A stretch of DNA of 64,000 bases from the IMG/VR virus record IMGVR_UViG_3300006045_000004, positions 26,180 to 90,179 of that record, one strand, 5' to 3'. The notes under the pieces are model-generated. The model saw only the letters and a list, made by a program, of their open reading frames with translations, had not been told where the DNA came from and did no database searches. The DNA is from a virus. Of this stretch, positions 533-41,818 are shown piece after piece; the first letter of the stretch is position 1; each line of letters begins with the position of its first letter. Both the position numbers and the translations under genes were made by a program.

Positions 533-539
533 TGTATAA

Positions 540-2788: not shown

Positions 2789-2790
2789 TT

Positions 2791-4208: not shown

Positions 4209-4238
4209 AAATATCAATTTCCTTCTTTTTTATTTTGT

Positions 4239-4703: not shown

Positions 4704-4728
4704 TTTATCGTTACTCCGTTAAGGTTAT

Positions 4729-6353: not shown

Positions 6354-6359
6354 TAATTA

Positions 6360-6512
6360 TCACACTTCGCTCAATATAATCTGCACAGTATCTCTCGGAA
6401 TTCCTGCAATGATAGAACTACCACACGCTGGACATGTGGTTAATTCATCTTCATCTAAGAATCGTCTATTACACTCAGTACAGTAAAATATTTTCACCTT
6501 ATTAATTTCCAT
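6360..6512 (-). CDS. Zinc-ribbon protein
   Basis: CTEC...CPAC motif; likely ATG at 6512 overlapping the portal stop. Confidence 0.6.
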   Translation of the reverse strand: MEINKVKIFYCTECNRRFLDEDELTTCPACGSSIIAGIPRDTVQIILSEV

Positions 6513-7815: not shown

Positions 7816-7821
7816 ATAAAT

Positions 7822-9342: not shown

Positions 9343-9462
9343 AATTTTGTTCTCATATTTAAATGTTTAGTAAAACTTATATATTATAATATGTTATTCA
9401 TAGTATTTAAAAGAATCTGAAAATTTACAAATTTTTGAAAATAATGGAAACATTTATATAAG
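9343..9462. promoter_or_regulatory. Divergent promoter region between the virion module and the plus-strand arm
   Basis: Strand switch; GAAACATTTATATA at about 9447-9460 on plus; TATA-like tracts on minus. Confidence 0.55.
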
Positions 9463-10145
9463 ATGAAGTATAATGTTATAATTGTGATTTTAATGACAGT
9501 TTATGATTTAAGCAAAGAAGATATATTGAGTCAAGAGCCAGTTGTATTTATTGATTTGAATGATATTGCTGGTGTAAATGGTGTAGATTTTAAAGTTATG
9601 ATTAGAAAACAAAGTATTTTTAATCCTAATGAAAAAATAGACCAAGAAGTTGAACATAGTGAATTTCAGAACGATAATGCTATTGAATTAATCAATGAGA
9701 TTATATTTAATTGTAAAATCTATAATTATGCCTATATTATTTATAATGGACAACAAATAGATGAAGGTGACCTTGTTCTTAATTTCTTTGCTAAGAATGA
9801 TTTAACATTGGGATAGTTATGACCAGATTAAAGTATGATATTAAAGTTCATAGTCCGAAATTACAAATAGCTGATGTTAAAGAAGTTGATTTTTGTTGTG
9901 ACCATTTTAAGAAATGGTTCAATGAATATATAGAGTTTAGTTGGGTTAATGAGTTGCAAGAGTTTTGTTTTTATATTGAAAGTTATAAATATTTTTACAC
10001 TAATGATGAAGATGTTTTTCAACTTAAAATATTCAAATGCCCATTTTGTGGAGAAACATTAGTTAGTCTTCCACAAAAAAGACTGGAAAAAAAGAAAATC
10101 GAAAAAAATGTTAAAATGGTCAGTTATGACTGGGAAGAGATTTAA
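9463..10145 (+). CDS. Two hypothetical proteins (9463-9816 and 9819-10145; the second has CC and CPFC motifs)
   Basis: ORF track; tight packing. Confidence 0.55.
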
Positions 10146-10172
10146 TTTTATGTAGAGGAAAGAAGAGGAGAT

Positions 10173-10261
10173 GGTATTATGATACCAATAGCATATTCGT
10201 ATGAGATTATGATTCTGAACTCAATTTGAAGAGGAGTTTCGGTAAGCGATATGCGATTGGT
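10173..10261 (+). ncRNA. Candidate structured RNA or attenuator
   Basis: About 15-bp stem 10184-10200/10246-10261 enclosing hairpin 10215-10222/10234-10242; competing hairpin 10173-10186. Confidence 0.3.
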
Positions 10262-17817: not shown

Positions 17818-19880
17818 ATGAATATAAGTGAAATTATGATGAAAATCAAAGATGAATATGGAATAGATGTAAATGATACTGAAATAGGTGGATTTGTTGT
17901 TATTTTAAAACATGACGGACCAGAAAATGAATTTACAGCCACTCATGTAGAAGCTTTTGAAGGACAGATGGGTACAATAGAGTTTAATGTTAAAAAAGAA
18001 ACTCAATATCTATCACCTGAACAAGTTGAAATGAAGAAAGCTCAAGAAGCTCAAATAGCAAACATGCAAGCAAATCAAGAAATCGTATTGGAATGATATA
18101 AATGAGTGCTGGAATAAGTATTTTCAGTCAAAATGCCTTAGAACAAATGGATAATGATAAAGTTCGTCTTTGGAGGAGGAAATTAGCAACTTTCTTACAA
18201 AACGGACTAAACATATCCATACGAAAAGGCAGTCGAACAGAAAACAATAGTATTATAGCTTTTAAGGAAGAAAATGATGAGTTTATTCCTTTAAATATAG
18301 AAGATTTAATGGATATTGTTGTTCAGGAAATTGATAATCAATTTAATCCAAATGGCGAGTTATATGTTAGTAAAGCTGATATTTATGAGGCATTGGGTTT
18401 TATTAATTCTTTTGTAGATATAGAATTTAATAATGGGGAGTGGAAATAATGGCTAATCGTGAAAATAGGTTTATTGTTGATGTTGTTAAATGTCGTACAA
18501 AATTTAGGAATAATACTCTTGAAGAAAAAGATATTATTAAGTTGTTAAATTATCATACAAGTATACAAGATAATGATGTAGACGGTATGATTGCTGAAAT
18601 GAATGAAGAAAATAAGGAAAAAATACAAAAAAACAAACAAATCGAACAGGCAATAAAGTCAAAAAGCACACCAGAAAGCAATATTAACAAAATGACTACT
18701 AATACAAGTTGGTAGATTATGAGGTTAGTTAATATGAAGGAAAAAGATATTAAAAAAGGTTTATTATACAATTATTTAATGTATATATTTACCTCAATTG
18801 GATATTTTAGTCTCGGTGTTTTTTTCTTAGGTGCTGCTTTTAGTTATGAAAGTCTTATTAAAATTATCATAGGTGTTTTTGGAATTATTTGTATAATTTT
18901 ATGTATTATTTTCCAGATTTTAGGTCGTAATATTAATTTTAGTTTTAGACAAGCATTAGGTAGAAAAAGATGGAAAATTGATTTTCCAAATTATTTAGAT
19001 TTAATGTTAATATTTCCTCTTGTTGGTGCATTAATTATTTTTAATATGGATAGTGGGATTCTTGTTACTATTGCACTTATTGATTTGGCTATTGGTTTTC
19101 TTAATATTTATGGTGTTGTTAAATCTGGTGGTTATAGAAGTGCTATAAATAATGGTAGTTTTTATGAATGATTCTATATATCCTGTTGGGTCTATTCGTT
19201 TTAGTTATGATGATGTTAGTGAAGATGATTTGAGGAAGATTCATATGTGGAAAAAATTAAGTGATACTGAATGGATAACTACAACTACTACTAATGAAAT
19301 TCCGAGAAGTCACAGGGTTATTTCTCCACCTCATACACATAATATTAATTTAAAAAATAGTGGTGTTATTAGTTTTAATATGCCTTCTACTGTTATTTGT
19401 CCTTTGTTATCTGAAACTCAACGGCTTTATAGGTTTATTTCTAATTTTAAACCTATTTTTTTTAATTATTATCCTGATAAATCTTTTGATTATTTTTTTG
19501 AACCTAATAAGTTTGAAAAAGATAATTATGGTTTAGATGCTTTTGTTGTTAAATTTAATTTTAATATTAATGAGTTACAAATGAAGGATGATAAATTTGT
19601 GTGTGATAAAACTGTTTTTTTGAACACAATATCCAGTTGTTTTGGTATTGATTTTGTTGATAGTGTTATGAAGGATTATGATATTGTTGTTTTTTTGTTG
19701 AGAAATGGCTTTAGAAGAAAGGATAAATATTCTGTTAAGAGTCTTCATGATAAAATTAAGGGGAATTGGAATGTTGGTGATGATATTGTTTCGTCTCAGA
19801 GTATTAGTATTCCTCATGTTTTTCCTACTAATCCTGATAATTTTAGTGTTAGTTTAGAGTGGAAAACTTCTTTGGATTGA
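17818..19880 (+). CDS. Five hypothetical ORFs (17818-18096, 18102-18449, 18440-18715, multi-TM 18719-19171, 19152-19880)
   Basis: Contiguous ORFs ending in a T-rich terminator at about 19881-19900. Confidence 0.6.
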
Positions 19881-20239
19881 TTTTATATATTTTTTTTTGA
19901 TATAATATAAGAAAGGTTTCCATTTAGGAAATGTTTCCAAAATTTTAAAAAATCGAAAATTTATAAACACAACCATCTTTTTTTTAAGATGTATTATATA
20001 TCTTATCCTTATTTTAAAAATATCATTAAAAATTTATTATTATATTAATATATTAAAAATAAAATAATCTTTAAAATATCATTAAATTTTTATTAAATAA
20101 TCTATAAAAATATTTAAAATAATCTTAATATTTTATTAAAAATTATATGTAACATATTTATAACATATAGTACATTTATGTACTTTATAGTACATATTTT
20201 TATAGTAAACTTTATATAAACTTAAAATAAATTATAACT

Positions 20240-20827
20240 ATGAATAACTTTAAAAATTTAAATTTAATGAATAAATCAAGTATTACTAATCAAGTTTTAA
20301 GTAATACTAATATTAAGTATAATAATAAATCTTTGATTTATTTAAATAAACTTAATATATATGATAAATCATTAAATTTAAAAGCTTATAGCTTTTTAAA
20401 TGAATATAAAGCTTTAAATAAAGCTTATAGAATTAAAAAAGGATTATATGTATTCTTTGATACTAAAAGTAATTCTTTTTATTCTTTAAGTAATAAAAAG
20501 CTTGATTTATCAAGTAATAAGATTAAAAATTTAATTTATTCATTATTAAATAAATATACTAAAAGATTTAAAAGAATAGAATATAATAAATCTTTAAATA
20601 TTTATTCTAATAGTATTAGTATTAAAAATTCTAAAAGTAATAAAACTATTTATCAAAGAAAAGCTTTAAATCATAGCTTGTTTTATAGTTTTAAAACTTA
20701 TAAAGAGTGTATAAATACAAGCTTTGATAATATATCTTGTTTACAAGATACAAAGCTTGTTAATTTTTATAATATGATACACTCAAAGAATATTAATAAA
20801 CATATTAAAAAACAACAAAGTTTATAA
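20240..20827 (+). CDS. Highly basic Lys/Asn/Ser-rich protein, probably leaderless
   Basis: 195 stop-free codons in extremely AT-rich DNA; TTTATATA at 20211-20218; no RBS. Confidence 0.55.
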   Translation: MNNFKNLNLMNKSSITNQVLSNTNIKYNNKSLIYLNKLNIYDKSLNLKAYSFLNEYKALNKAYRIKKGLYVFFDTKSNSFYSLSNKKLDLSSNKIKNLIYSLLNKYTKRFKRIEYNKSLNIYSNSISIKNSKSNKTIYQRKALNHSLFYSFKTYKECINTSFDNISCLQDTKLVNFYNMIHSKNINKHIKKQQSL

Positions 20828-21425
20828 TAATTAATCATATTATTATATCTTTAAAGCTTTAAGCTTTTAAATTCATATTATTTATAACTAATAATTAATA
20901 CAAAGATTAATTATAAGCTATTTATTATTAAATACTTATTTTTATATAGTTTTAATTAATCTTGATAGATTTAATTTATTTTTATAGTTATTAAACTTTA
21001 AAATATACTCTAATAAACTTTTTATAACACTTTAATAACTTTTAAATTTAATTAATTAAGATTGTTTAATTATTTTAATCTTTTTAATTATAAGGATAAT
21101 CAATATACAAAGATTACAAGTTTAAATTTAATACTATGAATAAATTAAATACTTTAATAGCAATACATAACTAATAATAACAAAGATTACATTATTTTAT
21201 AGAATTTAAACTATTTTTAATACAATATAGATTATAGCGATAACAGTATCAAAGATTTAAAGAATATACATATATTTAAAGGTTTGAAAAGCTTTTAATA
21301 CTTCTTTAAATCTATTTTATTTATTTTTAAGATACTTAAAAAGTGAAATATCTTTTAATAGATTAGTAACTTTTTAAGCTTAAATATAAAAGTGAAATAT
21401 AGTAACTTTTATAAAAATTTAAAGA

Positions 21426-21451
21426 TTAAATAGCTTTTAAAAGCTATTTAA
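21426..21451. repeat. Perfect 26-bp palindrome TTAAATAGCTTTTAAAAGCTATTTAA
   Basis: Read directly; abuts the AAGGTG RBS of the 21464 gene. Confidence 0.95.
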
Positions 21452-21463
21452 AAAGGTGAAATA

Positions 21464-22579
21464 ATGTATAATAAAGAATTAAACATAGAAAAAGCAATTA
21501 AAAGTTGCTTTACAAGTCAAATAGAAGTTGAACAAGTAAACAAAGTAACAATAGTTACTTTAATAAATAAATCAGAAAAGAGGTTTAAAGATTTATTAGA
21601 GGTTATAGCTTATGATTTAAAAGTAAGCTTTACTTATAATGAGTATGATTACAAAGCTTTAATATATTAAAGGAGTTGTTTTAAGTGTTAAATAGAAATT
21701 ATACAGTATTTAAAAGAAATAATAAAGAATTAGTTGAAATTAAATTAAATCAAAGTGAAATTAAACTTTTAAATGAAATTGAAAGCTTTAAAAATCTTGA
21801 AAGCTTTGAACAAGATATAAATATATGTTTAAATAGGTTTTAAAGGTGTAATAATGTATATAAAAAGGAATGAATATAATAAAGTAAATAGTAAGAATTA
21901 TCAATATATGAAAGGATATAATCCTATATTTAATGATAAAGAACAGATGATAAGAACAATTATTTTAAGAGGTTCTAATCAAGTTATAAAAGAAGTTAAT
22001 GAAGAATTTTTAGAATTAAGAGTAACAGCTATTTAAATGGAGTTGAAAGAATGAAATCAATATTAAAAGATTTAAGAATAAAAAAAGAAGAGCTTAAAGC
22101 TCTTAAAGAGAAAAAAGAAATATTAGAAAACATTATAGAAAGTAATAAAGCTTTCTTTAAAACTTTTGAATTTAAAGAAAATAAAAAAGAAGTAACAGAG
22201 CTTAGAAAAGCTCAAAGGTTACTTAAAAATAAATTGTATAAGCTTAATGAAAAGCTTAACGGTTTAAAATCTGAAATATGGAGCTTAAATATGAGCTTAG
22301 AAGTTTCAAGGCAAAATAAATTAGTTAAATGTAATATAAAGGAAAAAAATGAGCTAAAAACTAATGGTTTATGTTTTGAAGAAATTATAGAGCTTGAACA
22401 TAATATCCAGGATATACCAGGATATAACTATTAAAGGAGCTTTGAATATGGCAAGGTATATAAACGGTGTTAAAATATCTAATACCGTTTATAGAAGCAA
22501 TAGGAGCTATGAAAAAAGAAATAAAAATAATAAGAATTATAAACGGTTTAAAAATGGAGTAACCGTTTATTATGATTAA
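21464..22579 (+). CDS. Small early-type ORFs (21464-21670, about 21685-21843, 21854-22036, 22051-22434, ORF ending 22579)
   Basis: Each has a GGAG or GGTG RBS. Confidence 0.55.
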
Positions 22580-22591
22580 AAGGTGATTTAA

Positions 22592-23422
22592 ATGGCATAT
22601 GACAAAGAAAAATGGAAAAAAGATAAAAAAGAACAAGTTAAAAGCTTAAAAGATAGCTTAAAAAAGCTATCAAATGAACTTATAACAGATACAGACAAAC
22701 TTAAAAAACTTGCTGAAAGTTGGAGCAATCAGCTATATAGTTATTCAGCTCAAAATTTATTTACAGCTAACTTTCAATTGATAGCCAACAAAGGTAGAAT
22801 GGTTTCTGCTCTTGGAAGTTATAAAAGGTGGAAAGATGAGGAAAGATATGTAAATAAAGGTGAAAAAGCATTACATATATTAGCACCAATATTTACAAAG
22901 ATTAAAGATAAAAACGGAGAAGAAGAAAAAGTAATTAGTTTCTTTAAAACTGTTCCAGTCTTTGATATCAGTCAGACCAATGGAAAAGCTTGTAAATATG
23001 TAAGTGAAACAAACAAACTTATAAGTGAAACTGAATTTAAATTTGAGGATTTAAAAGCTAATTGTAAATGTGAAGTTAAGCTTGAAAGTCTTTCTTATGG
23101 TGGTCATACTGATGGTGAAAGTATTACAGTTAATATTGACCATACAAATGAAGGAAAAATAGCTAATATGTTTCACGAATTAGCTCATTTAGAAAGTCAT
23201 TATACTAAGGAAGGAAAAGAATTAGATAGAAGGACAAAAGAGCTTGAAGCTGAGGCAGTCAGTTATTTACTTTGTGAATTAATAGGAATTGAAAATAAAA
23301 AGTCAGCAGTTTATATTAACAGTTGGAAAGGTGGAGCAAAAGAATTAGAAAAGTCAGGACAAAGAGTATTAAAAACAGCTGATAAAATAGCTAAATATGT
23401 ATTTAAAGGTATATTAAATTAA
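22592..23422 (+). CDS. ardC: ArdC-like ssDNA-binding domain plus zincin-like metallopeptidase domain
   Basis: YSAQN, SYKRWK..R.V.KGEKA..ILAP and PVFDISQT.G motifs, then HELAH...ELEAE. Confidence 0.8.
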   Translation: MAYDKEKWKKDKKEQVKSLKDSLKKLSNELITDTDKLKKLAESWSNQLYSYSAQNLFTANFQLIANKGRMVSALGSYKRWKDEERYVNKGEKALHILAPIFTKIKDKNGEEEKVISFFKTVPVFDISQTNGKACKYVSETNKLISETEFKFEDLKANCKCEVKLESLSYGGHTDGESITVNIDHTNEGKIANMFHELAHLESHYTKEGKELDRRTKELEAEAVSYLLCELIGIENKKSAVYINSWKGGAKELEKSGQRVLKTADKIAKYVFKGILN

Positions 23423-23437
23423 ATAAGGAGTGTTAAT

Positions 23438-26400
23438 ATGAATAATGAAAGAAAAATGGAATTAAGAGAAATGGCAATTGAAGAAATTGAAAATGGTAAA
23501 GAAATTGGAGGAGAAATATATCCAGTTTCTAAAAGTCAAGCTCTTGGAGGTTATAAAACAAGTGCTACACAAAGAATTAGATATGGTAAAAGACATATTG
23601 AAGAGCTTAGAGCTGAAAGAAAAGCTATTCTTGAAAATATTAAAAGTATTGAAGAGGAGCTTAAAGAGAAAAGAGAATTAGTTAAAGAGATTAATAAAAT
23701 TAGAAGAGAGCTTTAAAGCTTTCTTCAATTAAAGGAGTTGGAAAATATGACTATATGGAAAAACTTACATAAAACAAGTACAGCTGAAAACGGTGAAGAT
23801 GAAAGAATTATTACTTTAAATGGTGTTGAGATATGGAAAAGACCATTAAAAGTTGAAGGTAGTTTAACAATTACTTACAAACATAAAGGTGAAGTATTAT
23901 ATCAAGGTATTCATTTAGTAGAGTATAAATATAATCATAAAGATTTTGAAAGTGGTTGGAAACATAGATTACCTGTTGAAAGAAAGCTTACAAGCGAAGA
24001 AGAACAAATTAAAGATATGTTGTTAAGTTTGTATGATATGAGGTTAAGAAAAGTTTTTAATGAGTGTTTAAGAGAAGAAGGGATTTTATGATTAAAGGAT
24101 TAATTGAAGTGGTGTTAAGTGAAATAACACCATTAAAATTTTCTTTTGAGGATAAAGGAAATTGGAAAAAAGAATTAAGTAATTTAAATAAAAATTGTGA
24201 AAATATTGAAAAAGGTAGAATATTAAATAAGAGGTTATAAAATGTTAAAAGAAAGTAGATATTTTAAAAGATTTGAAGAGTTAAAATCTGAACAGCAAAA
24301 AGAACTTTTTAAAACAACAATAAAGATAGTTACAAGAAGTGAAAAAATTGTAGAGTTTAAAGCAGTTGAGATTAAAAAAGCAGTATTACAATTTTTAAAG
24401 AATGATTGTTATATTAATTATGAGGGTAATGAGCTTATATGTGGTAATGAACATATCGATGAAGAGATTCTTATCGACCACATACATACAGATTTAGTGT
24501 GGGAAAATTATGATTACTAAAAAAGTTAAAAATCAAAAGATTATTACAAGTAAAATTAAAAAGAATAATCAGTTTAAAAAAGCAAAAGTTAAAGATAGTT
24601 GTTATGGTTTTACTTACAGAAAAGATTATTACTTATAATTCTTTTTGTAATAAATTAGTTTATATAGTAGAACAAACTGATATATGAATAGGAGATAAAA
24701 TATGAATTTAAAAGAATACATAGAAAATGAAGTACCAGAAAATATGGAAGAGGCAGAAGAACAAAATACAATTGAAAATTGGTATCCTCAATATATGACC
24801 GATGAGGAATACAAGCAATATGTAAAAGAATACAATAAATTCTTAGAAGAAACTGAACCAGTCATAACCGATGAAGATTTGGAAAATATGTATAACGAAC
24901 ATTTAATAAATATGTATGGAGCGTAGATAAAATGTTATTCAATGTGGAAGGATATAAAAAAGATGAACCAGAAATTGAGACACAAGCTTTCTTTATAAAT
25001 GAAGAACAGCTAAAAGAATGGCAAAAAGAAAATGTATTAGTTAAATTAGCAGAATTATAAAGGAGTTGAATAATATGAGTTACAAAGACCAAGCAGACAG
25101 ATTAAAAAGATTAATAAAACAAGCAAAAGCCGATAATGACGGCGAATTAGCTATGGAGTATGAAAACGATTTAGCTATGTTAAGAAATAGCTATGAATAT
25201 GAAAACGGATTAAATACAAGCTATGAAGAGTTTTAAATACTCTTCATTAATATTTTAAAGGTGATAATATGAGTTTAGTAGAAATATTAAAAACAGAAAA
25301 CAAAACAAAATTAAAAGAAAGTCAGCCAACATATTTTATAAAATTAAATATTGTTGAAAGTCCATATTTTTTTAATAGCTATAAATTAGAAATAATTATT
25401 AAACAAGACCAGTACAATACAAGATATTTAATTAATAATGATATGAAAAGACCACATAACAACAATTACAAAATACTTAAAAGTGATTATTGTTTAAAAA
25501 ATCTTAAATGGTTACTTAAAAGAAATAATATATCCAGTAGTGGTTTTATTGATAATGACGGTTTATATTATAGGAGTTGTTAAAAAATGTATAAGTATGA
25601 AGATTTTAAAATGATTAGAATGACAGAAGAGTTATTTGAGTTTAATGGTTGTAGTGAATGTATGATGTGTGAAGATTGTCATAATCACGCATCTAAAAGA
25701 ACTATTTATTGTCCTGAGATTGATGAGGATAGGTATAAAAAGCCATATTTGTTTAAAGATGATAAGGAGTTGAATAATAAAATTTTGGATATGAATGGAT
25801 ATATTCCACCAAAAGATTATGAGTATGAGGAGGATTAAATTCCTTTATTACTTATATTCTTTTTTGTAATAAATACATTTAAATAATAGAACAAACTTAT
25901 ATATGAATAGGAGTTAAAAATATGATAACTGAAATAATTAAAGATTTAGAAAATATACAAAATATGAATGACATAACAGATGAAATATATGATAGCTTAA
26001 AAGAAGTTATTGAAAAATTAGATAATGTAAATAGTATTGATAGTGTTGTTAAAAGAAGTATTGGAACAGCTTGTGAAAACATTACTTTAAATTTTGAAGA
26101 TACTAATTTTATGAAAGGTTTTGATGTTAAAAAAGATATTAATTTATTTATAAAAGGTGTTAATGAATGTGGTATAGAAATGTATAATACAAATGAAAAT
26201 ATACAAAAAGCTGATTGTAAAGAGTTTTTAGAATTTAATAAAGAATGTATAATTAGAATTGATGATTGGCAGTTAAAAGAAAAAGGTTATAGTATGGTTG
26301 ACTTGTTTGAAAATAAAGAACAAGTTAAAAGTAATGATATTCAAGATACTGATAGTTTTGAATTAAGTTATTATGAGATTAAAGAAATAGCTGATATTGT

Positions 26401-29400
26401 AGGAGTTGAAGTATATGAGTGATGATAAAAAGCACGAACATTGTTTCGGTGATGATTGTATGCGACCAGAATGTTGGGGAGCAGACGAATGTTTTAAAGA
26501 TAGTATGAAAAGTTTGTTTTGGAGTGATTAAATATGAGTATAGATGTAAACTTTGTAGAAAATGTATATAACGAAGAACTTAAAAAGTGGATTGTTGGCG
26601 ATGTGTGGGAAATTCATTACAACACATTAAAAGAATTTAAAACAGATATAAAAGAAAGGTTAAGAAAAGAATTTAATAGAAAAGATGTAAGAGATATTGA
26701 GTTATCAACAGCTGAAAGAGGTTATCCTGAAAAATTAGTAAGTGAGATTAAAGATGATGATGTTTTAATGTTTAATGTTGAACACGGTACAAGAAAGTAT
26801 TATGTTTGGAATAATAAGCCGTATAAAAATATGTATAGAATTTGTAGTAAAATTATGAGAAAGTTGTAATACTCTTTCATTTTTTTGTAATAACAAAGTA
26901 TAAATAGTAGAACAATCTTATATATGAGTAGGAGTAAAAAATATGACACAAAAATATCCATATAAAAAGTTTGAAGAACATAAAGGTATTGATAAAAAAC
27001 TGATATTAGTAAATTTAAAAGATTATATAAAAAATAATCTATGTGTTGAAGATGAAATTTTTAATAGTGTGGTGGTTGATGTAGCAAGAAATTTTGAAGT
27101 ACAATCTACAAATGTAAAAGATTACAGTTGGAAATATGAAAATGTTTTATTAGATGAATATACTCTTAAATTAAATTGTGTAAGATATTGGATAGCTGTT
27201 GAAAGATTTGGAAATGCTTTAAGAAAGTTAAAAAGATTAGAAGTTATTAAAAAAGAAGTGATTAAAGATATTAAATTGTTAGATGAGGATAAAAACGAGA
27301 GAGAAGAATTTAAGCCATTGTTAAAAGAAGAGTTAGATTATGAAGAATTTTGTATAAACAATGAGATAATAGAATTAGAAATTAAAGTAGAACAAGAAAA
27401 TAAAAGAATAGACCATTATAGAAATATTTTAAGATATGGAGTGTGAAAATTATGATTAAAGTAGAATTAAATTCAATGTATGATAGTAGAAAAAGTTTTT
27501 ATAATAAAGCTTATATTGTAAAGTATGATGATATGAATGTAGAGGCATTAGAAAGTTACGGTACAGAAGTAGCTATTTTTAATACAAAAGAACGATATGT
27601 AAGTGTGAGAGAGTTACCTAAGCATTTATATAGTAATACTACAATTAGACATATTAGGGAATTTTTAAAACAAAATGGTTTTAATGCTGATATGACTAAA
27701 AAAGAATTATTAAAAGAATATGCTGGTGTGATTTTATGAATAAAATGAGTGGAGTTTGTTATAAGTGTATGAGTGATACAGATTTTAAGTTTGTTTCTAA
27801 TGAAATGCTTACTGATAGAGATGTGTTTGAGTGTGTTGTGTGTGGTGCTAAGTTTGAGGTGATTGAATATGAAAAATAGTAGAATTGTTATAGGTTTGAT
27901 TGTGTTTGTTGTAGTTATTTTGTTTATTAGTGTTGTTAGTATTGGTATTCATAATCAAAATAAGCCAACATTAAATAATGAACAAATGAGTAATCTTATG
28001 AAAAATGTAAATGATACCAAAGTACCTGAAATAAGTAAAAGTTATAGTTTAGATGATGTTAGAAGACAGTATAAAGATGGAAATATAACTTATGAGGAGT
28101 ATAAACACGCAATAGATTTGTATAATAAGAGGGTAAAGTTGAGTAATAAGTGATAGTATGATTGATAGAGATATAAAAGAAATTAAAAAACATTTAATTG
28201 AAAAAGCTAAAAAGAATGGTTTGTATGAAAATTTTGGTCAAGCTGAAATAAGATATTTAAGAGATAGATATGGTGAAGGTGGTAGTAATTTTGAAAATTT
28301 GGATAAGATTAATGTGTTTGATAATTGGTGTAATACTTATCAAGAATAAAGTAATAAATACATTTATATACTAAAACAAAAATATATATGAGTAGGAGTT
28401 GATAAATATGTATAAACTATATGAAATAATACAAAGAGCCGATGAAATAAAAGAAGTAAAAGAAGAAGAAGGATATCACTACGAAGAACACTACGAGCCA
28501 ACCGATGACATAAATACAATAAGATATGAATTTGTATGGGAAGAAAATGGAAAAGAAAAGATATTATTAAAAACTGAAAATCAAGAAGAAATGTATCAAG
28601 ATTTAAAAACAATATATCCACATTTTTATAAAGAAATAGTAAGAAGTGATTAAGTATGGAAAAAATAATATTAATAGATACAAACTGTGAAACACCAATA
28701 ATATTAGCACAAGGATACACAAATAAAACACAAGAAGAAATACAAGAAATAGCCAACAAAGTAAAAGAAGAATTTCCAAACAATGCTGAAATATGGTACG
28801 ACACAATAACAGACAGAGTATTTGAGTTACAACCTGAATATTTAAAAGAGATAGGAGTTGATGTATAAATGAAATATTTTTGTGAATTGTTAGAGAGAGA
28901 TACAGATAATTTTATTGAAGATGTTGAGTTTAATATTTGTATGAATAGAGATAGTTTTAATATAGACGAATACATTGAGCAAGTAGAAAGAAAATACAAA
29001 CAAAAAAATACAGATTTTGATATGATTATAACTGATAATAAAAAATATAAAAATACATTTATAAGTAAAATAGACAAAAGTCATTTTAAAAGTTTAATGT
29101 ATATGATAGATGTTGAAAATGTTGAACAAATAAGTTTAAGTATATTTATAAAATAGGAGTGATTAATTATGAACCAATATGGAATATTAAGTATAGAAGA
29201 TATAAGAGAAGAAATTGAAGGAACAGCTGATTTTAATAATAATGGTGAGGATATAATTGATTATGATTTTTATACTCACAAAGATGTAGTTATTGTTATG
29301 GAAAATGGAGCAGTAAATTTAAATAATATTAGTGGTATTAGTTTACATATGGAGGATATGAAAATTAAGTTTTATAGAGATGAAATACCAAATAAAGATA

Positions 29401-29699
29401 ATGGAATGTTAGTTTTAAGTATAAGTGTTTTGTTTTTCAAGCTATTCAAAATAGTTAATACTAAAACAACAATGAGTAATAAATAGATTTAAATACTAAA
29501 AGAAACATATAATAAAAATGGTGATAAAATGAATGAAAATGAAAGAATATTCAACAGATTAATAATTGGATTAGTAACAGAAGGTGAAATATCCACACAA
29601 ATAGAAACAAGCTTAGAATACACAGAAGAAGACTTAAACAAACAAATAAAACAAAACAGAAAAGACATAAAAAAAATATACAAAATACTAAAAAGGTGA
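23438..29699 (+). CDS. Dense array of more than 20 small, mostly acidic hypothetical ORFs, including a zinc ribbon at 27736-27879 and a TM protein near 27863-28153
   Basis: ORF track plus manual reading; strong RBSs; 27736 ORF has CYKC...CVVC. Confidence 0.6.
24647..24701 (+). promoter_or_regulatory. Repeated promoter-RBS cassette, copy 1
   Basis: GTAATAAA..GTTTATATAGTAGAACAAACTGATATATGAATAGGAG, preceded by a T-run. Confidence 0.8.
25866..25921 (+). promoter_or_regulatory. Repeated promoter-RBS cassette, copy 2
   Basis: GTAATAAATACATTTAAATAATAGAACAAACTTATATATGAATAGGAG. Confidence 0.8.
26887..26942 (+). promoter_or_regulatory. Repeated promoter-RBS cassette, copy 3
   Basis: GTAATAACAAAGTATAAATAGTAGAACAATCTTATATATGAGTAGGAG. 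Confidence 0.8.
28351..28407 (+). promoter_or_regulatory. Repeated promoter-RBS cassette, copy 4
   Basis: GTAATAAATACATTTATATACTAAAACAAAAATATATATGAGTAGGAG. Confidence 0.8.
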
Positions 29700-29705
29700 A
29701 TAAAA

Positions 29706-29963
29706 ATGGAAACCATAACAATAAACAACAAAGAAAGAGCAATAAAAAGTGTAAACATACCTGACAATGAAATAAAAAACATAGAAATAATTGTAGAAAT
29801 AAAAAACTATGAAGTAACATACAACACAAATGAAGGATTTAAATGTAACTGTCCAGACCATACATACAGACATACACAATGTAAACACATACTAAAAGTA
29901 ATACCATACATAAACAAACAACTAAAAAAAGCATACATAACAGCACTACAACAAAAAGAATAA
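29706..29963 (+). CDS. SWIM zinc-finger protein
   Basis: YEV...FKCNCPD......CKHI motif. Confidence 0.8.
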   Translation: METITINNKERAIKSVNIPDNEIKNIEIIVEIKNYEVTYNTNEGFKCNCPDHTYRHTQCKHILKVIPYINKQLKKAYITALQQKE

Positions 29964-30068
29964 ACCACAACACCACAAAACACTAAAAAAGACCAAATAA
30001 AGCTTAGCACAAAAAGTGAAATAATAAATGTTAGAATAGTTAAAAAAAGAATAAATTGGAGTTTAAAT

Positions 30069-30936
30069 ATGATTAAAAATAAAAATGAATTAAAAAGCTT
30101 TTATAATACTGTAACCACCACAAAAGCCACCAAATGCTATTATAATGATAGATTAGATACTTATGGTAGAGGATGTGCCTATAACTGTGAGTATTGCTAT
30201 GCTAAAAGCCAATTAGAGTTTAGAAATAGAAAAGATGATAGTTTTAAAATGTGGGATAGCAATAACCCTGCCATAGCTAATATTGATAGAATTAAAAGAA
30301 AAATAAAAACATTAAAACCTTTATCTGTTGTAAGAATGGGTGGTATGACTGATTGTTTTCAACCAAAGGAATTAAAACACAGAGTAAGCTTAGAAACAAT
30401 TAAAGCTTTAAATGAACAGAAAATACACCACATTATAGTAACTAAAAGTGATATAATAGGAAGACCTGAATATGTTGAAGAATTAAGTAAATACAGTCAT
30501 ATACAAGTTAGTTTAAGTCATACAAGTGATTATGTATTAAGTAAATTTGAAAAAGCTCCAAAGTTCCAAAGTAGAATAAACACAATTGAAACATTATATC
30601 AAAATGGATTAGATGTAAGTCTTAGATTAAGTCCTATAATTGTTAATGGATTTGATTTTAATACTATAAATAAAACTGATGTTGATAAATGTTTAATTGA
30701 GTTTTTAAGATACCAACCTAAAATGGAAAATGGATTAAAAGAATTTATTGATACAAATAAATATACAATAAAAGCCAATAATTATAGACATATAACATTA
30801 GAAAATAAATTAAAAGTATTGGATATGTTGAAGTTCAAAGAAATATCTGTATGTGATAGTGTTAAAGAGCATTATGACTATTTTCCATGAAAATGTAAAT
30901 CATAACCCTACTGATTGTTGTAATTTAAGTTTATAA
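30069..30936 (+). CDS. Radical SAM protein (spore photoproduct lyase-like) with an apparent single-base frameshift near the C-terminus
   Basis: CAYNCEYC motif, RMGGMTDCFQP, TKSD, LRLSP; the frame stops at 30890 but removing one T continues it to 30936. Confidence 0.75.
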
Positions 30937-30939
30937 GAG

Positions 30940-33900
30940 GTGTTTAATATGTATAATGGAAAACAAAAATATATAGTAAATGGAGTATTTGAAACTGAAT
31001 TAAAAATGTATAAAGAAAATGGAAAATGGATAACAGATACTGGATATGATGAAAAGTTTTTATATTACAATGTGTTTAATGTTAATACTGGAAATGTAAG
31101 AAAAATTAAAACTACTGAAAAATTAGAAGAGTTTCTTAGTTTACAAGATGATATTAATAATTATTAAAAAAGTAATAAATAGATTTATATAAAATAAAAA
31201 CAAACAATAAATATGGAAGTGTAAACAATGTATGAAAATGAATACAAATTATTAAGACAAATAGGTGCTGATGAAGTAAGTGGCACAGAAAAAGAAAAAT
31301 ACGATGTATATACATTTGGTGAAACTGAAATAAGTATAAATGATGTTGTATTATACGATGTAAGTGAGATAGTATTAGATAATGGTGATGTTAGTTTTAG
31401 TATTGAAACAGAGGAAAATATGAAAGTAATAGCAATAGTGTCAGAAGGTCATAACCCTGAATATAGTATTAAAGTAGGTGGTGTATGGCATGATATAGGA
31501 GCAATTGAAATAGCAATAAACAAATCTAATAAATTAATTGAAATAGCTGATAATATTCATCAATATAAACAAGTTCAATTAACATATTTAGAAGACTATA
31601 AAGCATTTGGAAAAAGTATTTATTTAGATTATAAAATGAGTGATGTATATTATCATGGAATTGATTATACACACTTAAAAAATAGTATAAAAATAGTTGA
31701 AGACCTTATAAACCAAAGGAGTGAATAAATATGAGTAGACATTGCCATACAAGTTTAGAAACATATTATAATAAAGCTAAAATTACTGAAAAAGGTATGT
31801 ATCTTATACCAATAATTGTTAAAAGTGGAAATAAGCATATGTATAAAGGAATACAAATAGTTCCTGATATAGAAACTTTAAACATTCAAAAAAGATTAAT
31901 AAGTAATGTATATAGATGTGATTATAGTAGTGATTATGGTAGATTTGAAGACATTAAAGAAATAGTAACTGATTTTCAAATAATTAATGATAAATTAGAA
32001 GTTTTATTAAAATAAAGGTGTATTTATATGGATATTAAAGAAATTAATGAGAATGATAATTATAGTGTGTGCTTAGTAAAAGTATTAAATAAAAATTGTG
32101 TGTTTATAACTAATAAAGTATGGAAAGATTATGAAAATGATATTAGAAATTGTATTGAATTAGCATTAGAGAGAGAAATGGAAATAGAAGTAACAGAAAA
32201 TTTTGAAGAGTGTTTAGAAGAAGAAATGTATCAATTAGGATATGAGATTGAATTTTTAAATGTAGATGTGGTGATTTAAATGTTAGTATGTGGACAATTT
32301 GTAGAGAATAAACATGAAACTGATGACTTTATGGATAGTGAGTATTATTTAGATTATGAAAAACAAGATAACAGATTAGAGCATTTAAGAAATAAATGTG
32401 GTGGAAAATATTATATTGAACCTACAAATATTGAAGTAGATATACCAACAGAAAATTTATATATGTATGCTATCTGTCATATTGATAGTGATTTAGATAA
32501 TAGTTTCTTTGTAAGATATGTTTATTTTGATGAAAAACAAGCTATTGATAATATGAAATGTTTAAATGAAGAAGTATGGAATGAGGCATTACAAGGATAT
32601 TTGGAAACAGTTGAAGAATATAGAGATTATTATGATGTTAAATATTTAAGTGTTAAAGAAATTGAAGAAAATATTCTAAAAAGAATTGAAGAGGATAATC
32701 AATTAAGTGGTGATAATTTTAATAAATATCCATTTTTATCAAGATACCATTATGTAGAAGGTGAATAAATGTATTTACATGGATATTGTGAGAGTTGTAA
32801 TACAAGTTATGATGATAATAAGGAAACAAAAGAAAAATTTGAAGACTGTATGTTTAATGTAAAAAAAATAACAAAAGATTATGGTATAATATATATATGT
32901 AAAAACTGTGGAGCTGAATATAAAGTTATAAAGGTGAAAAAATGAATAAAATTTATACTGTATTTGAACCTGTATTAATTCAAAGTAATATAGATAGTAA
33001 AAAATCTTATTATAAAATAAGAGTTCATGACAATGAATTTGATGAGGAAAAACCAAATACAACATTCTTAGGATTATCTGATAAGAATTTTAATAATCTT
33101 ATAGTTCATGTAATTGAAAATTATTTATATGGAAAACAAGAATATTATACTGATAGTGTAAAATATGTAAGAGATGATGAAAATCATATAACTGGTGTAG
33201 AAGGATTATTTACATTATTATATGAAGACTTTAAAAGATTAGAGCATATAAATAATGGTGGTGAATAAAATCAATTATGATGACCTATTTATTGAAAAAG
33301 TGAATAATAAAAGTGTACAAAATATAGATAATGAAATAAACCTAAATACAAAAAGGAAAAAATACTATCCAAGAGTAGAAGGTTGGTTTATATTTATATT
33401 TACTATGTTTATAATCTTTATGATTATATTTTGTACAATGACATTATCAAGAATTATATTTGGAGGATAATAATGGAAAAAATAACACACACAATAGAGT
33501 TAATAGATGAAAATGGAAATAATGGTTTACCTAAATTAATAATAAGTTTTCATAATCGTATGAGTGTTGAAAAAATTAAACAATTCTTTGATAAATTAAT
33601 GTTTGATGATAGATATATCATAGGAACACCACTACAAAGAAAAAATTTATTAATAATATCAATAATGAAATTTTTAAATGATGAAGACAAAGAAAATGAT
33701 GTAATGAATAACCTATATATTCACACAAACCAATATACAACAGAAATACCTAAAACAACAGAAAATGACATATTATACACTATACTGAATGGTGGTGTAA
33801 TTATATCAAAATTAATTTATAGACAGGGTGAAATTCAAAGATTTCAAGACTTACGGTGGGATTACCCTATCAAACAAGAAAAACCAATAGTAAGAATAAA

Positions 33901-36900
33901 ACATATAGCAATGTATATAAAAGAAGTAGAGGATTTAAGTGGAATATGGAGTGCAAACCAACTATGTGAAATATGTAACATAGAACCAAGAATGTTAGAC
34001 AGAGTTAAAACTGGTGAGCTTAGAAAAAGATTATTAGATAGAGGATTTGAAGTTGAATTATTATCATTAAGTAAAAGATAAAAAGGAGTAAAATAATATG
34101 AATTTAACAAAAAATATATGTAAAAATGTACCAACAAAAACAAGTATAAGTAAAAATCATAACTTTACATTAAATAAAGGAAAAACACCAACCAATACAA
34201 CAATAACCAAAGAAAAATTAAATTTAACAAAAAATATATGTAAAAATGTACCAACAAAAACAAGTATAACAAATTATGATAATTGGAATTATAGAAGGTT
34301 ATAAAATGATTATACAATTAAAAAATGAAATAACAGAAAGTCATATAGCATTCTTTGAAATAGAAAATTTAAATAAATTTAAAAATGATTGTAAAGAATT
34401 TGTATCTAATTATGGATATAATTGTTTAAGTGAACATGAAGATATTGAGGATATTGAAAATAAGTTAATTCAGTATTTGGTTGATGATTATGTGGCTGGT
34501 GATAGAGTTCAAAGGTGGAAAAGAGTTTATACTGGAAATATAGCAACATGGGAAAAAATAGCTGAAAAAATTGTAGAGGTGTAAGTATGGTTTTAATAAG
34601 ATATAGAGTAGAAGATGTAGAAGAAGGATTAAATAATAATAATTGGAATACAAGCTTATTAATAGAAGAAAGTGAGATACCTGAAATGGAAAAAAAGTTA
34701 AAAAAAGTATTAGAAGATGAAGACTGGTGTTATGATGATGTATGTATGGTTTTAGAAGATTATGACCAAGATATAAATAGCACTAAAATAATTGAAAAAA
34801 CATTTAATGATATTTTAAGAGGTGAATAAATATGTTTTATGAAGTATGGTCAAGGGGATATATTGAATTGGTAACAAAAAGCCAACATAGAGCTGAAAAA
34901 TTAGTTGATTATATTTGGAATTATAGAGGTGATAGTGCGAGTTATAGGGAAAGAGAAACCTTAGAAGAAGGAGCTATGGATTGGTGTAAAGAAAATAAAG
35001 TATTCAAACATCATTGGAAAAATAATAAACAATTGTTTGTATTAAAAGATAATGATACTGATTGTGAAAATGAATATTATTTAAGTAATGCTACAACAAC
35101 ATTAATAAATAAAGCTATGGAAAAATCACAGTATAATGATGACGGTGTAAATGAAATTAGAGATTATTATGGTTATACTGGTGCTATTAAGTATTTCCTT
35201 AGAGAAATGGGATATAGTTTTGATATGGTAAAAGGTCAAGAAGTGATAATATGAGTTGGTTAGAAGATTTAAGTAATATATGTTCTGATAAAATAAGCAA
35301 TAAAAAAATAGATACTGATAATATTGAAGACATTTATCAAAATCCAAATACTCTTCAAGTTATTATTGAATATAAAGATAATTCACAAAATTATATAGAA
35401 TGTTCAAGTCTTATAGAATTAGTTGCTATATGTGGAAAATTAAATAATGAATTTTGAGTGATAATATGTATTATAAAGATGATAAGTTAAAGACAAGTTG
35501 TTTAATTGGAAAACCAAAAATAACATTTGAAATAGAGATACAAGGTGAGCATGACCCTGAACCAAATAAAAAAACATTTGAATGGAGTGATACAATACAT
35601 GGAGAATTTTTAGAAATAATTTGGGGTGGTATATTAGATAGCTTAAAAGGATATGAAGAAGTAAATTTTAAAATAAGTAAACAAGGAAAAGAAAAAACAC
35701 CAGAAGAAGTAAGTAAGTTTCTTGAAAAGGAAATGAAAAAAGAAATAAAAGATTTATGTAAAAGGTATGAGGTATGATATTATGATAGGTTTAGGTTTAA
35801 TATTATTTTGTGTTGGTTTAGTAGTTTTTAGTATTATATGTGGTTTAGGTGATTCATTAGAAGTATTTTTAGTAGTAAATACTATTTTATTCTTTGTTAT
35901 GATTGGATTATGTATTTGGCTTAGTACATTATTATTTGTAGTACCAATAATTCTTATTGTTATACTTGGAGTAATTGCATTAATGATATTAGATTAGAGG
36001 TGATAAGTGTGAATATTAATATTGATAGACAGTTAGAAAATTTAAAAGAAAATAAAACAGAAATTATTGAAATTAAATATAAAGAAAGTAAGTATGAAAT
36101 AACAAAACAAAAAATGACATTCGGAACACCTGATTATATTATTGAGAAATATAATAAGTTTTGTTCAAACTGTAAAAAACCATTTGAAAATAAAATATGT
36201 AAATGTAATTATAAAATAAAGAAGTTTATAAATGATAAAGGAAAACCATATTACAAAACAGAAGAAGAGTTATCAAATGCTTTTAAAGAGTATAAAGTAT
36301 ATAAATATCTTAAAGTTCAAAGAGAAATTTCTAAATTTGAAAATATTACTAAAAATATTGAAAATGAATTATGGGTGTTATTATGAGTGTAGCAGAAAAT
36401 TATACAGAATGGATTGAAAATAGTAAAAATATAATTAATCAAGCAATAGAAAACAATATTATAAAAGAAAAAAATATGTGTGGATTAAAAGAAAAAAAAG
36501 GAGTAAAACATTTTGATTGTAAAGAAGAAATAACTATTAAATATATTAATGATTATGGATGTAAAAAATTAAAAAAATGTAAATCATTGGTATATATGGA
36601 AGAAAATCAAGGAATATTTATAACTGTATCTGATTCAAATATTGAAGGAAGTAGAATAGATACATTTGATTATTTAGCTATGGTGGAGTCAATAGAATGA
36701 ATTTTTTATATTTAATGCTTTTAATTATTATAGTATTATTAATAATGATAGCTTGTATATTTGCTCCTGAATATTAAAAAAGGTGATTAAAATGAGGCAT
36801 AACATTAGAAGAGCAGTTATAATTGCTGATAAAAGAACTAATTATGAAGAAATAGAAAAAGAATTTAAAGAATATAAAGAAAACCTTATAAAAGATTTAA

Positions 36901-39601
36901 ATAAATTAGATTTGTATGAAGATAATATTAAAATGAAAAAAGAGATTAAAAACCTAACAGAAGCTATTAATGATTATGAAGATTTAATATCTGATATTTA
37001 TGGTGATAGATATAAAGTTAAAACAGAAGAAATATATGATAATATTATTCAATTTAGGATAATGCAAAATAGTCGTGATACTGTTTCAATAAGTAATTGG
37101 ATACAACATTTGTTATATTATACAGATGATTATAATATAATAAATAAAGAACATAATATTAGTTATGTAAGAGTTTATGATGAAGGAGAAAATAAATGGG
37201 AAGAATGGAATTTTAATGAAATAGAAAATATAAAAACAAAATATGATATTATTGATTATTTGAATGAAAAAACATTTGATGATTCACATAACTATTTTAT
37301 TAATCAATTTAATATAATTCTTCAAAAAGGTGATTAAATGAGTGAAAAACTTAATGTAAAAGAACTAATTGAAATACTACAAAACAATTATAAACCAGAA
37401 GAGGATATTGAAAGTGTTTATATAGATTTTAAAGATAAAAATATTAGTATTGATACAGAAGAAAAATTTGATTGTATAGTAAGTGATATGGTTGAGAATG
37501 TTTATCTTAAACATGATGATGAAAATCCTTTATATGCAGATATTTATCAAAAACTTCATAACCTTAGAAATATAATGAATGATAACTATGATGAATTTTT
37601 AAATGACTGGTATATAAATATACATGGTAGTTATAGATTTGAAGATGAAAAATATACAAGAACTGGTAAAGTTATGGAAATATTCATAGAAAATGGAACA
37701 GTTAATATAACAAAACCAATATACAAGAAAAAAACAAAAAATGAAATAATTAAAAAATTCAAAGTCCAATGGAGAAAAAAATTATGACAACACAAAAAGA
37801 AATAATACTAAGTATTTTAAACTTTGAACAAGGTCATGAAGAAAAAAACATTATAGTTGAATCTAATAATGGAAATATAAAAATATATAAAATGAAAATA
37901 ACAGAACAACAAAAAGAAGACATCATATCCATAAATGATATTAAGGTTGTAGATGATTTGTTTTTGTTAAAAGAAGAAGATTTTCTTAAAGTTAAAGGAA
38001 TTGGTAAGATTAAAGCAAGAAATATACATTTTTGGCTACAAGAAAATCAGAAAGAATATGAAAGATTTTTTATTCAAAATACTAATTTTAAAGAATATGA
38101 AATATGGAAATAAAAATATATAAAAATTAGCACCAAAATTAAATGTTTTTTCATACAGTAATATAAATAGATGTAAAAAAAATAAACTCCTAAATTTAGG
38201 CATATTTAATATATAAATTTTAGACAATTCATTATTTCAATATATGATATTTTTGAAAGGTGAAAAAATATGAAACAAATAACAAAAAAAGAAATGAGTG
38301 ATTTGATAGAGTGGGTTCAAAAAGACGACGGAGAAGTCATACAAATAAATAATAGAAATTTTATTAATACAGATTATTATGATATTATTCATCAAACAAA
38401 AAATACATTAAAATTAAAACATAAAAATTCAACTAAATGCACCATACTAAACATAATGGATATTAATATTCAGAAATGTGAAATCCAAACAATATCAAAA
38501 ACAGATTTATTTCTTTATTTTCCAGAAGTAAATGATATAAATGAAATATTATCAGACGAAACACATAGTATGTGTGGTGATGTTTATTATAGTAAACTTC
38601 CATTAAGAACTAAAAAAGATAGTGATGGAGATTATATGCAATATCAAGTAAAATATATTAAATATTATACTTCAAAAAATAACACTATTATTTATATATA
38701 TAATACTCAAAATGAATTAGAAGAAATATGTGAGATAAAATATGACAATTAAAAATATCACAAATCATGATGATAAAAGATATATTTATAAAAAATATGT
38801 AGAACCAATAATATGGATGATATTATTCTACAAAACAAAAAAATCAAATGCTCCAATTAATAACAAATATTCTGATAGATATGTAGAACTACCAGAATTT
38901 GAAAAGAAAAGAAAAAGTCCATTAAGTGCATATTATGGTCAAATATTGCATATTATGAATATTCAATATAAATTTACTAAAAAATGGATATTTATAACAG
39001 TTGTTCATCATAAACATAATGATAAAAATTATAAAACAGAATTTAGAATAGGTGATAATGGTAAATTTAAGGTGGTAACATGAACAAAGAAGAAAAAGAT
39101 AAAATAAAAAGTTTTACAGATTTTATGGGAATATTTGGAGATATGGAAATTAAAACAGATATTCAAACAACAGATGTAATGAAAGATATTATGGAAAAAA
39201 CAATTAAAAATTATTTAGATAATAATGTAGCTACTGAAAGCGAAGCTTTGTGGATGACAAGAGAAGCAATAGGCAAACAAGAGTTATACGAGTCATACAT
39301 ATATCCAGTATTGGAAATAATTCAAGAACATAGTAGTGAAGATTATTTTTGGAATCCTGAGAAACAACCAAGAGGTAGTAGAGAGCTTAAATTTAATACA
39401 GAAGAAAATATAACTATACCTTGTGAAAATGGAGAAATTTGTAGTATTGTTTATAGAATTAGGAAAGATTTTATTAAATTAGAGATTAAATTTTTCATTA
39501 ATGTAGCTCAAACTGAAGACCAGAGAAAAATAATTAAGATTGAGTTGGACAAACAAAATATCCATTTTGTTCACCCTAATAAAGTGATGTTGGAGCATTA
39601 A
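30940..39601 (+). CDS. Array of about 25 small hypothetical ORFs; the 33472-34081 protein has a possible C-terminal HTH; 35767-35997 is a multi-TM protein
   Basis: ORF track; coupled starts and stops; GGTGA RBSs. Confidence 0.6.
31172..31227 (+). promoter_or_regulatory. Repeated promoter cassette, copy 5 (diverged)
   Basis: GTAATAAATAGATTTATATAAAATAAAAACAAAC; ATG 56 nt after GTAATAA, as in the other copies. Confidence 0.65.
34101..34269 (+). repeat. 49-bp perfect direct repeat (34101-34149 and 34221-34269) inside a 68-aa ORF (34098-34304)
   Basis: AATTTAACAAAAAATATATGTAAAAATGTACCAACAAAAACAAGTATAA twice, 120 bp apart, with a degenerate middle copy. Confidence 0.95.
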
Positions 39602-39727
39602 TGGATATATTGTTGAGTGTGTGGATTTTTTATTTGTTTTTAATAAAATTATGTGGACCTAAAAATCAAAATAAACTATAAATATTAAGAATAAAGAGAA
39701 ATAGAGGAGAAATTTTTATTATGAAAA

Positions 39728-40046
39728 ACTTTTTTAACTCAATATAACTTTTTTAAAGTTATAATTTGGAGCATTTTCCGTGATTTGTTTTTTTATTTCT
39801 GGTACTTATACTTATTATTATTATTATAACTTTTATAACTATATAATATAACACATATTCCTCACGGGGCTTTTCTTCGTGATGAGGCGAATAGACATAA
39901 AATATAATTTACAGATGATGTGTTATGTTTAGTGGTTATAAAAGTTATAAATTTTTAAAGAAAGAAATGATACTCAAATTTATATATAAAGAACAGAGAA
40001 GTCTTTAATTTCTAACCTTAAAAAAGTTATATTGAGTTAAAAAAGT
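39728..40046. repeat. Three nested perfect inverted repeats centred on 39887; putative replication origin
   Basis: 29 bp at 39728-39756/40018-40046, 16 bp at 39824-39839/39935-39950, 9 bp at 39848-39856/39918-39926. Confidence 0.9.
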
Positions 40047-40226
40047 GTAAAAATAGTTAAAAAAACAAAAAAACATACAATACCTGCACACAAAATATCC
40101 ATTTTTCTTACTCATTAATAATAATAAGACTTTTTTTATTACTATAATAAACTATTTATATGATAAAAGATAATATAAAAATAACACTAAGTTAAGTTAG
40201 TTGTTAAATAAAAAGGAGTTGGTAGA

Positions 40227-41816: not shown

Positions 41817-41818
41817 AT

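Follow-up and report, generated by a model that had tools for sequence, protein, structure and literature searches.

An island of the palindrome AGCT at the head of a putative early anti-restriction block in a tailed virus of termite-gut metagenomes

We analysed a window of 64,000 nucleotides, bases 26180–90179 of the 135,897-bp IMG/VR virus record IMGVR_UViG_3300006045_000004, in which a 3.6-kb island of the tetranucleotide AGCT opens a block of predicted early genes that includes an ArdC-like anti-restriction gene. The record is linear, without end repeats, ∼85% complete and 27.6% G+C, and it belongs to a tailed virus, whose minus strand encodes terminase, portal, protease and capsid at 3.3–9.3 kb. 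An upstream operon ends at 19880, and beyond it an AT-rich leader, a first early gene, a non-coding spacer and a series of small open reading frames (ORFs) around the ArdC-like gene make up the locus (Table 1). Positions are those of the window unless stated otherwise.

Table 1. Features of the early block and of the AGCT island
Feature	Position	Strand	Basis and remarks
Extra palindrome-avoidance domain opened by the island	19072–33952		TGCA, CATG and TCGA gaps
AT-rich leader, upstream operon to first early gene	19880–20239	+	Sequence reading; repeats; GC 0.13
First early gene, 195-aa basic Asn/Lys/Ser-rich protein	20240–20827	+	9 AGCT; homologue in nearest relative
AGCT island	20383–23988		59 AGCT; 47 with AAGCT on at least one strand; 23 AAGCTT
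AT-rich non-coding spacer, 636 bp	20828–21463		7 AGCT; sequence; site positions
Four small early ORFs (68, 52, 60, 127 aa)	21464–22434	+	GGTG/GGAG ribosome-binding site before each
ArdC-like anti-restriction gene	22592–23422	+	15 AGCT (18 per kb); Pfam ArdcN and Peptidase_M78; phrog_7245
Two small early ORFs (92, 117 aa)	23438–24091	+	Island ends in the second

The first-pass annotation of this DNA had put about 59 AGCT in about 3.6 kb, often with extended flanks, and an exact recount of 20380–24000 returned that very number (16.3 per kb), with 23 AAGCTT and nine copies of AAAGCTTT among the extensions. The word is far from evenly spread: the remaining record holds 432 sites (3.3 per kb), though the island is G+C-poorer, and 167 of the sites elsewhere lie in the window (2.8 per kb). 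Dinucleotide-preserving shuffles of the island yielded 22.3 ± 3.7 AGCT, and the highest count among 1000 shuffles was 35. For the 50 sites in coding sequence, synonymous codon permutation within nine ORFs gave 26.8 ± 2.9, and resampling from genome codon usage gave 13.8 ± 3.1. The enrichment is thus kept under the codon- and dinucleotide-controlled shuffles that the first-pass annotation had proposed as checks. Depending on the control, 6–27 sites are expected in the island, and AGCT stands ∼4–10 times above what composition or codon use predicts.

Both coding choices contribute to this excess. Synonymous opportunities to write AGCT are used at 49% in eight island ORFs and at 52% in a 3-kb bin, compared with 17% elsewhere, and in the ORF of 127 amino acids 11 of the 13 possible sites are taken. 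Moreover, the island proteins offer 10.8 opportunities per 100 amino acids against 6.0 elsewhere; thus codon and amino-acid choice are both bent toward AGCT. The island is 80% coding, its coding sites fall in all three codon phases (23, 16 and 11), and its non-coding DNA carries the word at 12.2 per kb. With the excess beyond the codon and dinucleotide controls, these phases and non-coding sites bear out the earlier claim that selection acts on the DNA and not on the protein, and selection at the DNA level is well supported. In an unbiased k-mer comparison, the top of the island list was AGCT among 4-mers, AAGCT among 5-mers, and AAAGCT and AAGCTT among 6-mers. All NAGCTN hexamers are enriched 10–16 fold, and therefore the selected core is the AGCT tetramer itself.

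The left edge of the island is sharp, with no AGCT in 19001–20382, and the first site lies 165 bp past the TATA box of the first early gene. Observed/expected ratios for the four successive kilobases from 20 to 24 kb are 15.5, 7.6, 10.8 and 8.7, falling to 1.2–4.0 over 24–32 kb and to ∼1.2 elsewhere; the island ends within the ORF at 23738–24091, before the small early ORFs run out. A second small cluster, of seven sites in ∼400 bp (24985–25377), lies 1 kb past the island. A tandem-repeat or iteron array was ruled out: a repeat search returned weak 15–47-nt families only, with 69–93% identity and no periodicity.

The island stands in a genome that is otherwise stripped of such words. GATC and CTAG, described in the first-pass annotation as apparently purged, are both absent from the window and from the whole record; ACGT, CCGG, CGCG and GCGC are likewise absent from the whole record, and GGCC occurs four times, where base composition would lead one to expect ∼48–334 of each of these purged palindromes. 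The remaining G+C-containing 4-bp palindromes are at 0–0.8 of expectation genome-wide, and AGCT, with 491 sites observed against 509 expected under a second-order Markov model, is the sole one that the virus does not avoid. Around and beyond the island the avoidance deepens. TGCA is missing throughout the domain listed in Table 1 (a 14,880-bp gap against a mean spacing of 449 bp), CATG is missing from 19815–30886 (11,071 bp against 596 bp), and TCGA is missing from 24474–43897 (19,423 bp against 1,359 bp), a desert that outreaches the other two. Each of these gaps is the whole-genome maximum for its own word. Their left limits, at 19.1–24.5 kb, lie within ∼5 kb of a composition break at ∼19.9 kb, and their right limits are ragged. 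GTAC has a gap of its own, of 8.3 kb, at 52615–60880.

An AGCT excess left over as a by-product of palindrome avoidance was ruled out by two results. When the island proteins were recoded with genome-wide or early-block codon usage and 11 palindromes were forbidden, 13 ± 3 AGCT were obtained against 49 observed; and the next 7 kb beyond the island (24–31 kb) is equally purged with an AGCT observed/expected ratio of just 2.3. Tetramers with two G+C that are one mutation away from purged palindromes stand at 0.92–1.02 in the early block and at 1.29–1.34 in late regions. Avoidance of such ‘star’ sites was also rejected as a source of the island, the depletion being slight (0.92 against 0.95–1.03) and too small for a 10-fold AGCT excess.

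The leader in front of the island contains a small hairpin with a T-run at ∼19974–19991, direct repeats at 20011–20145 and a TTTATATA box at 20211–20218, 21 nt upstream of the ATG of the first early gene. Three GTAC sites stand at exact 10-bp steps (20170, 20180 and 20190), each within a TATAGTACAT-like or ATGTAC repeat; this trio (20170–20193) sits 20–40 bp upstream of the box, few other GTAC lie near the island, and the arrangement looks like an operator. The first early gene has no Shine-Dalgarno sequence and its mRNA is probably leaderless, since a TATA box placed in this way before an ATG without a ribosome-binding site is typical of archaeal leaderless messages; a bacterial promoter scan was uninformative, the virus being archaeal. 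Judged by a 43–45% identical homologue at the equivalent position in the nearest relative, the ORF is a real gene. A fold model of its product was unusable (predicted local distance difference test, pLDDT, 37.6). In the spacer, a perfect 22-bp palindrome (21428–21449) directly precedes the ribosome-binding site of the next gene, with a fold z-score of −6.3 in the window from 21426. The four small ORFs that follow gave no Pfam or PHROG matches. Between the last of them and the ArdC-like gene, overlapping a doubtful ORF of 43 amino acids, lie two perfect inverted repeats with 10-bp arms (22459–22493 and 22539–22570) that share the core AAACGGT/ACCGTTT, with fold z-scores of −3.2 to −4.9. AACGGT occurs six times against 0.4 expected, and the repeats could be an attenuator or operator ahead of ardC.

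The predicted ArdC-like product matches ArdcN in its N-terminal part (28.8 bits, cut-off 22.6) and Peptidase_M78, an HExxH zincin, in its C-terminal part (23.6 bits, cut-off 22), as well as phrog_7245 (4.9e-17), and the motif FHELAH is conserved in the ArdC alignment. By these matches it has the ArdC domain plan, an N-terminal ArdcN single-strand-DNA-binding domain followed by a C-terminal HExxH metalloprotease domain. The first-pass annotation had spoken of a putative leading region including ardC; the ArdC-like gene and the place of the island at the head of the extra-avoidance block stand, whereas ‘leading’ derives solely from the asymmetry of the site deserts.

The nearest relative that we reached has a terminase 66% identical to that of the present virus and was followed through the Logan contigs L218, L222 and L223. 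It keeps the same order of late operon, AT-rich break, first-gene homologue, small ORFs and ArdC-like gene (38% identity), and in L218 an identical TTTATATA box stands 23 nt upstream of the homologous start codon. Conservation in relatives, which the first-pass annotation had suggested looking for, was found here at the level of density: the leading 4.78 kb of the relative contains 28 AGCT (5.9 per kb), compared with 1.62 per kb in 11.7 kb of late genes. The two first genes share one AGCT column, and with a dense head whose sites are mostly elsewhere, it is the density that is conserved and not the individual sites. Two more ArdC homologues, with 51% identity, carry five and seven AGCT compared with the 15 of the present gene, and each matches 2 of the 15 site columns; in these closer homologues, stretches such as ELEAEA are unchanged in amino acids but lack the AGCT sites. 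It follows from these comparisons that AGCT density where the early block begins is under selection in this lineage, with individual sites turning over.

A further contig, L003 (ENA k119_1093675, 130 kb), which bears ArdC, PCNA and ERCC4 genes, follows the opposite AGCT regime. It has 12 AGCT in 20.9 kb where ∼55 are expected and none in its ardC, GATC and CTAG are absent, and TGCA and CATG are at normal levels. As AGCT has been purged from this contig, the word is still actively recognised in this group of viruses, and on this comparison it is one that host systems read. In an IMG/VR scan for triple AAGCTT clusters, the best 2-kb window among the 107 loci listed, a small sample, reached at most 5 times expectation, compared with ∼10 times in the present island.

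Several lines of evidence bear on the host. The best named-phage match of the terminase is Methanobacterium virus PhiF1, at 36% identity. A pseudomurein-binding repeat (PMBR), which is a marker of a pseudomurein-walled (Methanobacteriales-type) host, was found outside the window at record position 8346–8432, within an open frame of 345 amino acids, with a score of 26.9 bits, above the Pfam cut-off. All sequencing runs that contain the stretch are termite-gut metagenomes, two of them with contigs that cover 19000–24000 in full, and Methanobrevibacter genomes are among the top cellular matches of ArdC. Hence, the PhiF1-like terminase, the PMBR, the termite-gut runs and the ArdC matches together suggest that the host is most likely a Methanobrevibacter-like, pseudomurein-walled methanogen of the termite gut. 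A DNA similarity search of phages and plasmids gave no matches, a search of IMG/VR for relatives with ArdC or terminase peptides found none, and the terminase aligned to genome contigs gave none either. The island itself is present at 100% identity in contigs of other assemblies, possibly from related samples, which rules out an assembly artefact as its origin.

The early block is probably the first DNA that the virus exposes in the host. The close left limits and ragged right limits of the deserts are what one would predict for an exposure to restriction that declines away from the entering end, and the block carries an anti-restriction gene while lacking words that are tolerated elsewhere in the genome. 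In these respects, it resembles the first-step-transfer region of T5 and the early-injected region of T7-type phages (PMC12455610), with which it shares the anti-restriction gene, the missing sites, and one sharp boundary with the other fading with distance. The 10.2-kb terminal repeat of T5 is annotated as first-entering DNA in record NC_005859. The T5- and T7-type cases are depletions, however, whereas here one palindrome is enriched 5–10 fold on top of the depletion, and stepwise entry would have to be assumed. T5 also has an excess of GCGC in 1–10219, with 54 in ∼10 kb compared with 35 in the next 40 kb (a sixfold density), but CGCC, AGCG, CCGC and CGCG rise along with it in the first-step-transfer repeat; as all CpG-containing words rise, this is a compositional contrast and not the behaviour of one word, and the parallel was dropped.

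An independent Logan contig, L009, matches 19992–32897 at 100% identity. A long terminal repeat with these limits was considered and dropped, because a collapsed repeat would not break the assembly graph; and the contigs of the nearest relative break at the equivalent AT-rich leader. Since both breaks of L009 fall in low-complexity AT-rich or TA-repeat DNA, its boundaries are uninformative on genome ends.

The leading regions of conjugative plasmids carry ardA, ardC, ssb and psiB with single-strand hairpin promoters. They are like the island in having an ArdC-type gene on presumed first-entering DNA that is unusually self-complementary, and differ in that the present element is a tailed virus, expected to deliver double-stranded DNA. 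Moreover, no long hairpins of the Frpo or ssi type were found in the island, in which the self-complementary element is a dispersed 4-mer only.

To explain the DNA-level excess, the conserved density and the AGCT purge in L003, some agent able to recognise this word in DNA has to be assumed. We favour, tentatively and at somewhat less than even confidence, the view that the island is an array of recognition sites for an AGCT-specific factor on first-entering DNA. It would be a positively selected AGCT array in double-stranded DNA, covering the 3.6 kb of the early anti-defence block that lie nearest the promoter and serving as a multi-site target of a factor that recognises this word. The leading candidate would be AG(m4C)T methylation, at N4-methylcytosine (m4C), by an orphan host methyltransferase, in which case the leading DNA would arrive densely marked or soon become so; the second candidate would be a sequence-specific protein coat, brought in the virion or made from the first early gene. 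Reading of AGCT by such a protein would result in protection, or in the timing of early expression. Persistent orphan m4C AGCT methyltransferases are present in Methanomicrobiales and Nitrososphaerota, where AGCT and GATC methylation co-occur (REBASE survey, PMC10609329). Archaeal AG(m4C)T methyltransferases, several of them persistent orphans, are the only known candidate AGCT-specific activities in archaea.

Local concentration of methylation sites has precedents. GATC sites are clustered in the E. coli oriC and in the P1 pac site. In Halobacteria, CTAG sites are concentrated upstream of orc6/cdc1, genes of origin-binding proteins (PMC10609329). These clusters of orphan-methyltransferase sites are like the island in that a 4-bp palindromic word is locally concentrated among constrained palindromes. 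A possible parallel with a different palindrome, CCGG, lies at the left end of PhiF1 (MK994522.1), the first 7 kb of which contain 58 CCGG, where the remaining genome would predict ∼14–17, and 50 CCCGG, where ∼8 would be predicted, beside a putative C5-methyltransferase gene at 8483–9679. PhiF1 differs in its word, in a smaller excess and in the location of part of that excess in annotated repeats, and its counts were made without codon controls; GTATTA and GTAATA are strongly repeated in the same 7 kb too.

Several observations weigh against an array for an AGCT-specific factor. The known methylation-site clusters measure ∼0.1–0.3 kb and are non-coding, whereas the island is 3.6 kb and mostly coding; they also have an identified methyltransferase and reader, both of which are putative for the island. 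The ∼85%-complete record gave no matches to PF00145, PF01555 or PF02086 (C5, N4/N6 and Dam-type methyltransferases), and persistent AGCT methyltransferases of Methanobacteria are absent from the REBASE survey (PMC10609329). As for a protein coat, no candidate AGCT-binding protein was found; the product of the first early gene in particular gave no Pfam or PHROG matches, and word-indexed as well as exhaustive hidden Markov model searches returned its own lineage only. Two rumen Methanobrevibacter genomes contain 13–20 AGCT triplet clusters per genome, dispersed and with no large island. AGCT spacing in the island has no helical periodicity at 3, 7, 10, 10.5, 11 or 12 bp, and histone-type helical phasing was dropped for this reason. 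Finally, the first entry of the island DNA is itself something that we infer.

Among the other explanations, nucleic-acid structure fares best, although we regard it as unlikely. The self-complementary word would fold early mRNA, or single-stranded or supercoiled DNA, into hairpins or cruciforms, which might make transcripts more stable, serve as hairpin promoters or terminators, or impede nucleases. The mean z-scores of sliding 150-nt folds lie between −1.6 and −1.8 in the island and at −0.5, −0.45 and +0.2 in the flanks, and 30 of the 59 AGCT have a neighbour within 13 bp where 20.3 ± 4.5 are expected (p = 0.025), with 7, 10 and 12 as favoured spacings. The 22-bp palindrome in the spacer and several AAGCT-loop-AGCTT pairs point the same way. 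Self-complementarity and site pairing, however, follow automatically from enriching any palindrome, and hairpin arms need no palindromic tetramer, so that the choice of AGCT is left unexplained. Moreover, about half of the AGCT sites are isolated, a single 4-mer forms no stem, and the AGCT positions are not conserved in the nearest relative.

It is more improbable still that the island has no function and is a compositional or historical by-product, whether of an AGCT-rich donor module, of a local mutational bias or of word avoidance. Its composition is unusual (GC 0.13–0.28), viral early modules are mosaic, and the early block is slightly short of two-G+C tetramers that are one mutation from a purged palindrome. 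The constraint simulation, however, does not reproduce the enrichment, and the purge runs 7–10 kb past the island without it. A foreign module fits poorly with an island that, like the whole genome, lacks six palindromes and that uses the same style of ribosome-binding site, and a historical accident fits poorly with a bias that recurs at different positions in a relative whose first-gene product is 43–45% identical, and to which amino-acid and codon choice are both bent.

We give little credence to some other cis role of a short two-strand word, such as a zone in which primase starts beside the AT-rich DNA or, in the manner of Chi, the modulation of a host nuclease that processes DNA ends. 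The island does adjoin easily melted DNA of 13–17% GC and a possible genome end, and a palindrome acts on both strands, but Chi is not known from archaea, and a Chi site has an orientation, which a palindrome lacks. Least probable of all is a decoy that soaks up an AGCT-specific restriction enzyme, one of the three roles proposed in the first-pass annotation beside a methylation mark and a protein-loading array, or some other handling of AGCT restriction on first-entering DNA: the location in an anti-restriction module and the AGCT-specific restriction evident among hosts of related elements from L003 would suit it, but the 432 AGCT kept elsewhere, at a whole-genome ratio of ∼1, indicate no effective AGCT restriction by this host, cuts within the earliest genes would be lethal, and 59 sites cannot titrate a turnover enzyme.

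Selection against short palindromes is well known in phage and archaeal-virus genomics. For the reverse, strong local selection for one palindrome, pressed through coding sequence at the level of both amino acids and codons, we found no description, and a literature search found no paper on such a local palindrome island. The observation made in the first-pass annotation is confirmed and strengthened by the present analysis, and the island occupies the start of the early anti-restriction block, the place at which the virus would be most exposed. With the array for an AGCT-specific factor as the starting point, it is possible, but in our judgement rather doubtful, that the island represents a novel class of cis-acting element, a kilobase-scale, coding-overlapping array of one ‘safe’ palindrome on first-entering viral DNA that would load an AGCT-specific factor before viral protein synthesis. 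The factor might then be a dense m4C mark brought along from the last host, or a coat of protein, and in this archaeal virus it would shield the early anti-defence genes or set their timing. The signal is easily sought in other viruses, as a profile of palindrome observed/expected ratios relative to the first early promoter. If a methyl-mark or protein-loading array is indeed present, it would constitute a counter-defence or entry device encoded in the DNA itself, and would open a way into the still unexplained methylation of AGCT by orphan enzymes in archaea.

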